From positions 111,168-175,167 of the forward strand of contig CAXHJY010000998.1 of NCBI GenBank assembly GCA_964016885.1: a stretch of DNA of 64,000 nucleotides, given 5' to 3'. Both the position numbers and the translations under genes were made by a program. Shown one piece after another: positions 7,765-29,323 of the stretch; the first letter of the stretch is position 1, and every line of letters starts with the position of its first letter. The DNA is from Eledone cirrhosa. Taxonomy: Eukaryota. Below the pieces are notes generated by a model. It was not told where the DNA came from and ran no database searches. It saw only the letters and a list, made by a program, of their open reading frames with translations.

Positions 7765-7932
7765 ATTTACATTTTCTATATATTTTGTCTGAGGAGAACA
7801 TGTTTTGCTTCATGCTATACATAAAACTTTGCATCTTCGAAATATATAAAATGTAATAAATAGAGATGATATAAAATGTATATATTTCGTTTATTACTAC
7901 GATTATATTAAACTTTAATCTGTGATTTTAAT
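7765..7932 (+). mobile_element. HHR-like module related to family H
   Basis: TATTTTGT-CTGAGGA-GAA...TTC-GAAA-TATATA-AAATGTA; within a TA-flanked island. Confidence 0.5.
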
Positions 7933-7939
7933 ATATATA

Positions 7940-7985
<46 letters not shown>

Positions 7986-12963: not shown

Positions 12964-12971
12964 ATATATAT

Positions 12972-13013
<42 letters not shown>

Positions 13014-13089
13014 TTTCTGAATTTGTTTAGCAAGATTCTTTATCTGAAATCGTGTGTTTCTTATTGGCAACATGACCCTCCCAAAGTAT

Positions 13090-13148
<59 letters not shown>

Positions 13149-13596
13149 ATACAATAACAGAGATAGTTTAAAGCTAAACTCTGACTGGTAACCATCTCAA
13201 TCAACAAACATTAGGTTATATTTAAATACAAACCCAATTTAAGTGTTTGGGGTGCTAACAATATGTATAATGTGGAAAAACCAGTTGTATTATTTTATGA
13301 GATATAATTAAAGTTAAAGTATATCTCTCTTTCCAAACAATTGTTTCATTATAAGTCTTCTACAAGTTGGGAGAATATTTCCAGTTTATGTAGAAGCCTA
13401 ATATATATTCATGTAAGAATATATTTAGGTGGGCGCTTATAAATCATCAGTGGAAGCCCATTAAACTTTGATATAAGAAAGAAAATATTCTTACCGCGTA
13501 AATATATATATATATGTATATATATATATATGTATATATACATATACATTGATATATATATATATGTATATATGCATATACATACATGTATATATT

Positions 13597-18353: not shown

Positions 18354-18527
<174 letters not shown>

Positions 18528-18643
18528 ATGTATGTATATATTGTTACATTTGGGGAGGGTCATATTGTTATATTACTGCCAGAAATAATAACAGAACACA
18601 CTCACTGTTTGGTTTGGTTTTCGCTTCCGTATCTTTTATATCT

Positions 18644-24024: not shown

Positions 24025-24330
24025 AACAACAATAATAATGAAATTAGCAATAGCAACAACAACAACAACATAAATACAGCAACAACATCAACAATAATAC
24101 TAACATTAATTATAACAATAACATCAGCAACAAATACAAGTGTAATTCTTACAAAACCAACTCCATGCTTTTAAATAAAAAATCTTGCACGTGGTTATAA
24201 AAATGAATTGAGACACTTTACTCCAATAGTTGACTGGTACTTCATTTTATTATATCCATTTCTATCGCAGTAACATAACCGTGATTTCAACTTCAGATCT
24301 AGACGTCTTGAGTGTTCTGCTTGGAAATGA

Positions 24331-24392
<62 letters not shown>

Positions 24393-24400
<8 letters not shown>

Positions 24401-25193
24401 TATCGAGAATCGGAATCTCGGCCCACGAAATAACGAAACACAATCTTCGAAATGCGTGGCAAAGGGCTCAATAGTTTGGATAAACCAGAGCTATAACTAT
24501 CGTTTAAATACCAACACATAGAGACAATGCTTAAAATCATTCGCACAGCCGAATAAACGATCAGGAAAATTCGAGTCACACAAATAATAAATTAAATGAA
24601 TGAAAAATCTTACCCGGACCCATTAGAAGGATGTTAAATTCCAGCCCTTTCGTCTCCGCGGTTCCCAAATCAGTTACCGTCAGCCTACATAAAAAATATC
24701 TGACTTCTGGTAAAAAGATGAACGAGGGAACCACTTTTTCAACAGGCATTTCGTTCAAAAATACAAAGGCATCCGTTACTAAATCCACGTGGGGTCTAGC
24801 AAGGGAGGGAACCCCTATACTAGGCGTATGAATTCAGTAGTGTATATATTTGTAAAAATACAAAATATCACATATCGAATTAGAGTTGTCAACAGACGGG
24901 TTACAATCAACATGAGCTATTCATCAGTCAATAAGATCAACTAAAAAATCAATAAAATTAACTGGTCAATAGCTAAAGACTGGAGATAAATACAAATAAA
25001 TTATCGAGAATCGGAAACTCGGCCCACGAAATAACGAAACACAATCTTCGAAATGCGTGGCAAAGGGCTCAACAGTTTGGACAAACCAGAGCCACAACTA
25101 TCGCCCAAATACCAACACATAAAGACAATGCTTAAAATCATTCGCACAGCCGAAAAAACGACCAGGAAAATTCGGGTCATACAAATAATAAAT

Positions 25194-25197
<4 letters not shown>
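24393..25197. mobile_element. TA-flanked element with ~205-bp direct terminal repeats (601-bp period)
   Basis: 24393-24597 repeated at 24994-25198; no TG..CA LTR ends; degenerate CTGATGA motif on the - strand near 24925. Confidence 0.75.
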
Positions 25198-25230
<33 letters not shown>

Positions 25231-25359
25231 TGTATTTAAGGTCGAGTGACGCAACTTCGAGTGATTAGCGGACTTTAGACTCACCTATTCAATGAAACAA
25301 TTGTTAATACTGTAAATAAAACCCTTTTTGTACAGCCGACCATATTATTCTTCACTCAT

Positions 25360-25424
<65 letters not shown>

Positions 25425-28777: not shown

Positions 28778-29323
<546 letters not shown>

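Follow-up and report, generated by a model that had tools for sequence, protein, structure and literature searches.

ADAR-type A-to-G patches have been described in BLV proviruses (PMC8025556) and, according to a review, in Rous-associated virus, avian leukosis virus, HTLV-2, and STLV-3 (PMC12925331). LTR elements carrying G-to-A edits by APOBEC are fixed in vertebrate genomes and were reported to be absent from 19 invertebrate genomes, in a paper whose main text does not contain the word "ADAR" (PMC4866542). LINE-1 restriction by ADAR1 has been reported to be independent of editing (PMC5224506), and neither "ADAR" nor "editing" occurs in the main text of a 2026 octopus repeat annotation (PMC13282606). 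ADAR scars fixed in a germ line nonviral retroelement were not reported in the open-licence titles and abstracts covered by our searches.

We analyzed a stretch of Eledone cirrhosa DNA (assembly GCA_964016885.1, contig CAXHJY010000998.1, positions 111,168 to 175,167 of the forward strand), which is called the window below and is 64,000 nucleotides long. The feature under study lies at 24393..25197 in window coordinates and carries a scar of A-to-G changes on one strand that is real, highly nonrandom, and larger than first described. Like the proviral cases, it has at least seven A-to-G changes in a short span of one terminal repeat, amounting to near half of the As, and apparently written via reverse transcription (PMC8025556, PMC12925331). 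Whereas those proviruses are infectious and edited in somatic cells, the element is noncoding and nonviral and has aged like its sister copies in an animal genome. With the APOBEC fossils it shares a clustered, strand-biased, consensus-polarized scar of deaminase type in a genomic retroelement, but the fossils are G-to-A changes made on cDNA of LTR elements, whereas the changes here are A to G in an element without true LTRs (PMC4866542).

In build, the closest described systems are Naiad and the nonautonomous Chlamys Penelope-like elements, which likewise insert at (TA)n, are truncated at the 5' end, form pseudo-LTRs from partial tandems, now and then carry inverted pieces, and lack a canonical hammerhead (PMC8557442). 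Naiads have been reported in Octopus (PMC8557442). Unlike them, the element has no reading frame, and no autonomous partner sharing its 3' end was found among 35 GIY-YIG loci; the likeness is one of anatomy. Non-LTR retrozymes also consist of noncoding tandem units and are thought to ride on Penelope-like elements (bioRxiv 10.64898/2026.07.22.740005). However, the element lacks their hammerhead, and its pattern of changes argues against two passes around a circular monomer.

Structure of the element and its family

Family copies were collected from the window's own 3.0-Gb genome, where a first look gave 3,111 candidates. Loci were then sampled by similarity searching and by exact motifs (at least 339 exact motif matches), an approach that recovers heavily changed copies poorly. 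The parts of the element are as follows.

24333..24392 (array 24333-24397), no strand: (TA)n target run bordering the fixed end, which is probably the 3' end of the RNA; in 152/157 elements, the fixed end has a TA run within 25 nt
24393..24993, minus strand: full 601-bp noncoding unit, the minus strand being the probable RNA sense
24393..24597, minus strand: left repeat, corresponding to the 3' end of the unit and predicted to fold into a long imperfect hairpin; no A-to-G change at its first 37 A sites (24393-24578)
24994..25198, minus strand: right repeat, a 5'-truncated second copy of the unit forming a pseudo-LTR-like partial tandem
25197..25229, no strand: (TA)n run at the truncated end

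Segments 24393-24597 and 24994-25198, offset by 601 positions, form a gapless alignment. The left end is fixed in the family, with 198 of 239 segments beginning at unit base 1, and right ends vary between copies from short pieces to two units, indicating that the build is a partial tandem of a 601-bp unit and a truncated second copy and not an LTR element. The terminal repeats of LTR elements and TRIMs have a fixed length and TG...CA ends. Such repeats are absent here, as the element ends in AAAT...AAAT and the second repeat ranges across copies from about 40 bp to a whole unit. The right-hand member of what had been annotated as a pair of terminal repeats is therefore the truncated unit. A TA run adjoins the variable end in 117/157 elements. 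Because the 3' end is fixed and truncation is at the 5' end, the minus strand is likely to be the RNA strand, and the changes described below are read as A to G. Unit bases 190 to 225 (window 24582-24617), an AT-rich stretch just past the predicted hairpin, are the stop point for 55/222 segments, and this preferred truncation makes the repeats resemble fixed terminal repeats.

Apart from frames running through the microsatellite, the longest reading frame overlapping the unit is 85 aa from stop to stop. No match to any Rfam family came near its gathering score, and the single CUGAUGA is not followed by the conserved GAAA that completes the hammerhead core motif. We rejected an identity as a non-LTR retrozyme, for which a type I hammerhead is expected in each unit. 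The features found are those of Penelope-like elements: a full unit preceded by a 5'-truncated tandem copy, a fixed 3' end, a microsatellite target, and inverted pieces, which lie beside 7/176 family loci. From this anatomy we assign the element as nonautonomous, (TA)n targeting, and Penelope-like in build.

For an autonomous partner sharing the 3' end, no nucleotide match was found in 35 loci, taken from 150 listed of 10,597 GIY-YIG candidates; three frames of these 35 loci contain RVT_1. Sequence shared beyond the truncation points, considered as a trace of such a partner, turned out to be other TA-nesting repeats or segmental duplicates. Three of the candidate loci (L148, L149, and L150) have reverse transcriptase frames of 844 to 1,096 aa ending at the GIY-YIG match and belong to at least two Penelope-like families.

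Rare variants are common to both units in 16 of 43 other tandem pairs, and any one left/right difference occurs in two loci at most, indicating that the units are usually identical at insertion. This fits young, homogeneous tandem masters and also regeneration of the tandem in other events.

A-to-G changes in the studied copy

The two repeats of the copy differ at 13 positions, eight of which are T on the left and C on the right, with seven of these within 34 nt, exactly as the initial annotation described. It proposed A-to-I hyperediting of element RNA that was then reverse transcribed and integrated, and gave C-to-T deamination of the left copy as the alternative. Polarization by the family state decided between them. 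At the seven clustered sites, T is present, with single exceptions, in both repeats of the first 29 other loci and in 16 or 17 of 17 sister segments. T is thus ancestral, and the right repeat gained seven Cs, which places all seven on the editing side. The eighth difference, at 24561 (vs 25162), has C in 49/49 other repeats covering the site. It is a C-to-T change in the left repeat and not an edit. Deamination of the left copy is therefore true of that one site; as an account of the cluster it is refuted by the T found there in left and right repeats alike, and we give it practically no chance.

Compared with 12 sister loci, the studied copy has 32 differences: 16 T to C on the forward strand, 1 A to G, and 15 others. 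Thirteen of the 16 are packed into two patches, the second of which, in the spacer, is new, and three are single.

25073..25106 (unit bases 80-113), minus strand: patch 1, 7/12 A to G (25073, 25082, 25093, 25095, 25104, 25105, and 25106)
24642..24666 (unit bases 250-274), minus strand: patch 2, new, 6/13 A to G (24642, 24646, 24647, 24654, 24657, and 24666)
24579, minus strand: single A to G relative to sister copies and the right repeat; less sure, as C is present in other subfamilies
24820, minus strand: single A to G, T in 63/63 other segments
24908, minus strand: single A to G, T in 52/52 other segments
24561 (vs 25162), plus strand: eighth T/C difference, a C-to-T change in the left repeat

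Together, the patches have 13 of 25 As changed, including adjacent changes in A runs (25104-06 and 24646-47). Position 24642 is less sure as an edit, since C is the usual state in older subfamilies. With 24579 and 24642 excluded because their states are common in other subfamilies, 14 A-to-G changes are firm. Patch 2 also contains one C-to-G change. The left repeat has 0/12 As changed where the right repeat has 7/12. Changes of the APOBEC type (G to A) make up 4 of the 32 differences and are unclustered. The other left/right differences (5 in 205 bp) are in line with the family mean of 286 in 10,530 bp (2.7%). This ordinary number suggests that the copy has aged like its sisters, carrying a normal load of later mutations, and thus that the insertion passed through the germ line.

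Uniqueness of the pattern within the family

Rare variants were scored in 254 segments (81,119 bases), the studied copy included, and 184 other loci served for comparison. The rate counts cover segments of at least 82% identity, and those below this level were examined separately. The background in the 184 loci is symmetric, with minus-strand rates of 3.73 per 1,000 for A to G (68/18,222 A) and 4.18 per 1,000 for T to C (130/31,111 T). At the family rate, 0.74 A-to-G changes would be expected in the studied copy versus the 14 firm changes seen (Poisson, 8e-14). In 100,000 random placements of 16 changes on the 188 A sites, 33 produced a patch of at least seven changes within 35 nt, and none produced a patch of 7 along with one of 6. 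Scanning for strand-biased A-to-G clusters, as had been suggested, gave an unbiased spectrum and no cluster of at least four same-type changes in 40 nt in the 184 loci; the only other cluster of three is T to A. The pattern was thus seen in 1 of 185 sampled loci, which is not an unbiased rate of edited copies because the sampling misses heavily changed ones.

One other locus (L011) was considered as a second edited copy and rejected. It is the next outlier, with nine A-to-G changes of 29 (P = 1.5e-4), of which two come from a diverged neighboring piece and the seven in the main element are dispersed and unclustered, several with a 5' G. Low-identity segments contained no hyperedited copies. 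No edited Penelope copies were found among eight reference families, a small sample picked for intact GIY-YIG. A cluster of five A-to-G changes in a 78%-identical Penelope copy was set aside, as its spectrum is balanced.

If the Cs had come from gene conversion or by descent from a diverged subfamily, copies with the same haplotype should exist, and C is indeed common in other subfamilies at 24642 and 24579; the assembly may also lack some copies. However, every other copy in the genome differs from each patch by more than 2 or 3 mismatches. For patch 1, the 28-base stretch with five of the seven changes has no other genome match at two or fewer mismatches, and a T/C-tolerant motif found one match with a single C among 100 matches listed of 110, so the C haplotype is not the common subfamily that would have spoken against the initial annotation. 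The patch 2 haplotype is absent elsewhere in the genome, and among the 92 matches of its tolerant motif, all listed, none of the 91 others carries two or more of the five firm changes. The spectra of older relatives (69 to 82% identity) are balanced. Conversion or subfamily descent is accordingly highly improbable, as is chance, for which the probability is below 1e-10.

An assembly or polishing artefact, such as edited RNA reads or a bad consensus, has somewhat more in its favor. The locus is on an unplaced contig, of which the assembly has no second haplotype, its left flank (24110-24330) is single copy, and the haplotype was not found in seven public DNA runs. Positions 25075-25101 were uncovered at 99% likeness in these runs, a result that counts neither way, as the runs may come from another animal, three of them are reduced representation, and contigs drop rare variants. 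Against an artefact, the bias is limited to the element, with no T-to-C change in the repeat adjoining it at 25228-25365; the changes run in one direction and obey a neighbor rule; no other copy is able to donate the Cs; and the private base at 24651 survives within patch 2. Judged on this pattern, assembly error is unlikely. Over the other repeats in the window, with the element's block removed, 39 T-to-C and 48 A-to-G differences were counted in 8,194 columns, some of them microsatellite misalignment. Misalignment also accounts for an apparent A-to-G excess at 18486-18638, 7914-7985, and 12970-13236.

Neighbor signature and deaminase domains

The 5' neighbors of the 16 changed As are U9 A6 C1 G0, compared with U59 A42 C22 G49 at unchanged As. 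The depletion of 5' G is significant for all 16 sites (0/16 vs 49/172, P = 0.006) and for the 14 firm sites (0/14, P = 0.012). The initial annotation had based its ADAR context on 5' U or A at 7 of 8 sites. All seven edits do have such a neighbor, but on these patch 1 sites alone the bias is not significant (P = 0.12); significance comes with the 14 to 16 sites. Within the patches, the changed fraction by 5' base was 7/8 for U, 5/11 for A, 1/3 for C, and 0/3 for G, and among ordinary A-to-G changes outside the studied copy, 24/64 have G as the 5' neighbor. Depletion of 5' G is the ADAR motif common to metazoan hyperediting, with octopus giving the strongest signal in the survey (PMC5625713). 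The same survey found that invertebrate hyperediting favors 3' A, not G (PMC5625713). Here, 5/6 As with a 3' G in the patches are changed, a preference that is not significant (P = 0.10 to 0.11).

The host genome has 12 PF02137 (A_deamin) matches at four places, an assignment at the domain level that may denote ADAR, ADAD, or ADAT1. At 13.64 Mb of C6, an ADAR-type deaminase domain (L300 and L301) lies in one 700-aa open frame with no introns there and is interrupted by an in-frame insert of about 800 bp.

RNA folding and candidate duplex partners

The unit fold is strong (z = -6.4), and the repeat forms a predicted long hairpin. The mean pairing probability of the changed As in the fold of sister copies was 0.31 vs 0.72 (L003) and 0.49 vs 0.68 (L030). 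In these predictions, the changed As are mostly unpaired, in loops of the element's own fold, which counts against ADAR. Pairing of patch 1 with patch 2 was tried and rejected, since 28% of random segment pairs are as good and the forced pairing carries a penalty of about 21 kcal/mol. The studied copy has no adjacent inverted piece, and no duplex partner was found. If ADAR acted, its partner strand would probably have come from an antisense transcript or from a short inverted segment in the source locus and not from the element's own fold.

Inverted pieces of 39 to 64 bp are located directly beside three family copies (L013:1451-1489, L103:1130-1193, and L214:1248-1289). Read-through RNA over these pieces would form short duplexes comparable in length to the patches.

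Origin of the changes

The main rival to ADAR editing is an error-prone polymerase of the Pol eta or iota type that inserted G across from template T over short stretches, either while the second strand of the insertion was being made or in later repair. The signature of Pol eta is likewise A-to-G change in a WA context (PMC8639439), and 15 of the 16 sites have a 5' A or T. Such a polymerase needs no double-stranded RNA, fits the predicted unpaired positions, and could have left the one C-to-G change in patch 2. The density and purity of the patches count against it. With 13 of the 25 patch As changed, only one private change of another kind occurs there, and about one is expected in 59 nt from the copy's own background. 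The error rate of Pol eta is a few percent per template T, and its errors are not confined to this type. Moreover, the flanking repeats counted above are unbiased. We therefore give an error-prone polymerase a small but appreciable chance of being correct.

Misinsertion by the reverse transcriptase itself, with a skewed dNTP pool leading to G opposite T during synthesis of the second strand, would tie the strand to the element and suits the adjacent changes in A runs (25104-06 and 24646-47). It predicts changes along the whole copy, however, instead of two patches and 0/37 changed As in the first 186 nt, and leaves unexplained that none of the 49 As with a 5' G changed. We regard this explanation as very unlikely, less so than gene conversion but more so than an assembly artefact.

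The explanation that we consider probable is that the element RNA was edited, by an enzyme that we infer to be ADAR, was reverse transcribed, and was inherited as DNA. The editing proposed in the initial annotation is thus supported, by the ancestral T and by the second A-to-G patch in the spacer. In the sequence of events that we propose, a tandem source locus would give a linear minus-strand RNA longer than one unit, and ADAR would deaminate a few single sites and roughly half of the As within two short double-stranded patches. A borrowed Penelope-type reverse transcriptase would prime at the TA run and read inosine as G. The cDNA would run from the unedited 3' hairpin via the spacer and over the junction to end at unit base 205, and the edited cDNA would then be inserted through the germ line.

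A single linear RNA longer than one unit is the probable template, since the patches flank the unit junction and the left repeat is without the changes of the right repeat. The 0/12 on the left versus 7/12 on the right indicates that the same RNA bases were not copied twice. As edited copies are rare, two patches flanking the junction also favor one molecule. Editing of an RNA:cDNA hybrid between two passes around a circle could give patch 1 but not patch 2, which was copied once, and was set aside.

If this account is correct, RNA editing, which is ordinarily transient, gave rise to a heritable DNA mutation in an animal without the participation of a virus, and a transposing RNA was exposed to ADAR in the germ line. 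For the formation of Penelope-like pseudo-LTRs, the 7/12 versus 0/12 pattern would exclude copying of the same RNA bases twice. These implications concern one lightly edited copy in 185 and a presumptive enzyme. More tentatively, and with some doubt, we suggest that germ line ADAR may mark transposing Penelope-type RNAs through antisense duplexes of about 35 to 50 bp. The patches might then serve as molecular barcodes, showing that a single linear read-through RNA already contained the pseudo-LTR, which would then not have arisen from rolling around a circular monomer or from a jump at the end of the unit. Scars across the genome would, if so, map germ line RNA duplexes and settle how pseudo-LTRs form.

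Neighboring repeats and segmental duplicates

Five family copies on C1 (L248 to L252; 211.9 to 213.0 Mb) lie within 1.1 Mb in both orientations with flanks that are about 99% identical and are segmental duplicates. At 25228-25365 in the window, a second abundant repeat adjoins the element between TA runs; it has 2,358 first-look candidates with copies about 96% alike, and several matches have an adjacent inverted copy. A 97-bp tandem duplication at 29091-29311 (99% identical) starts in a TA run, and its unit matches a repeat beside other family loci.
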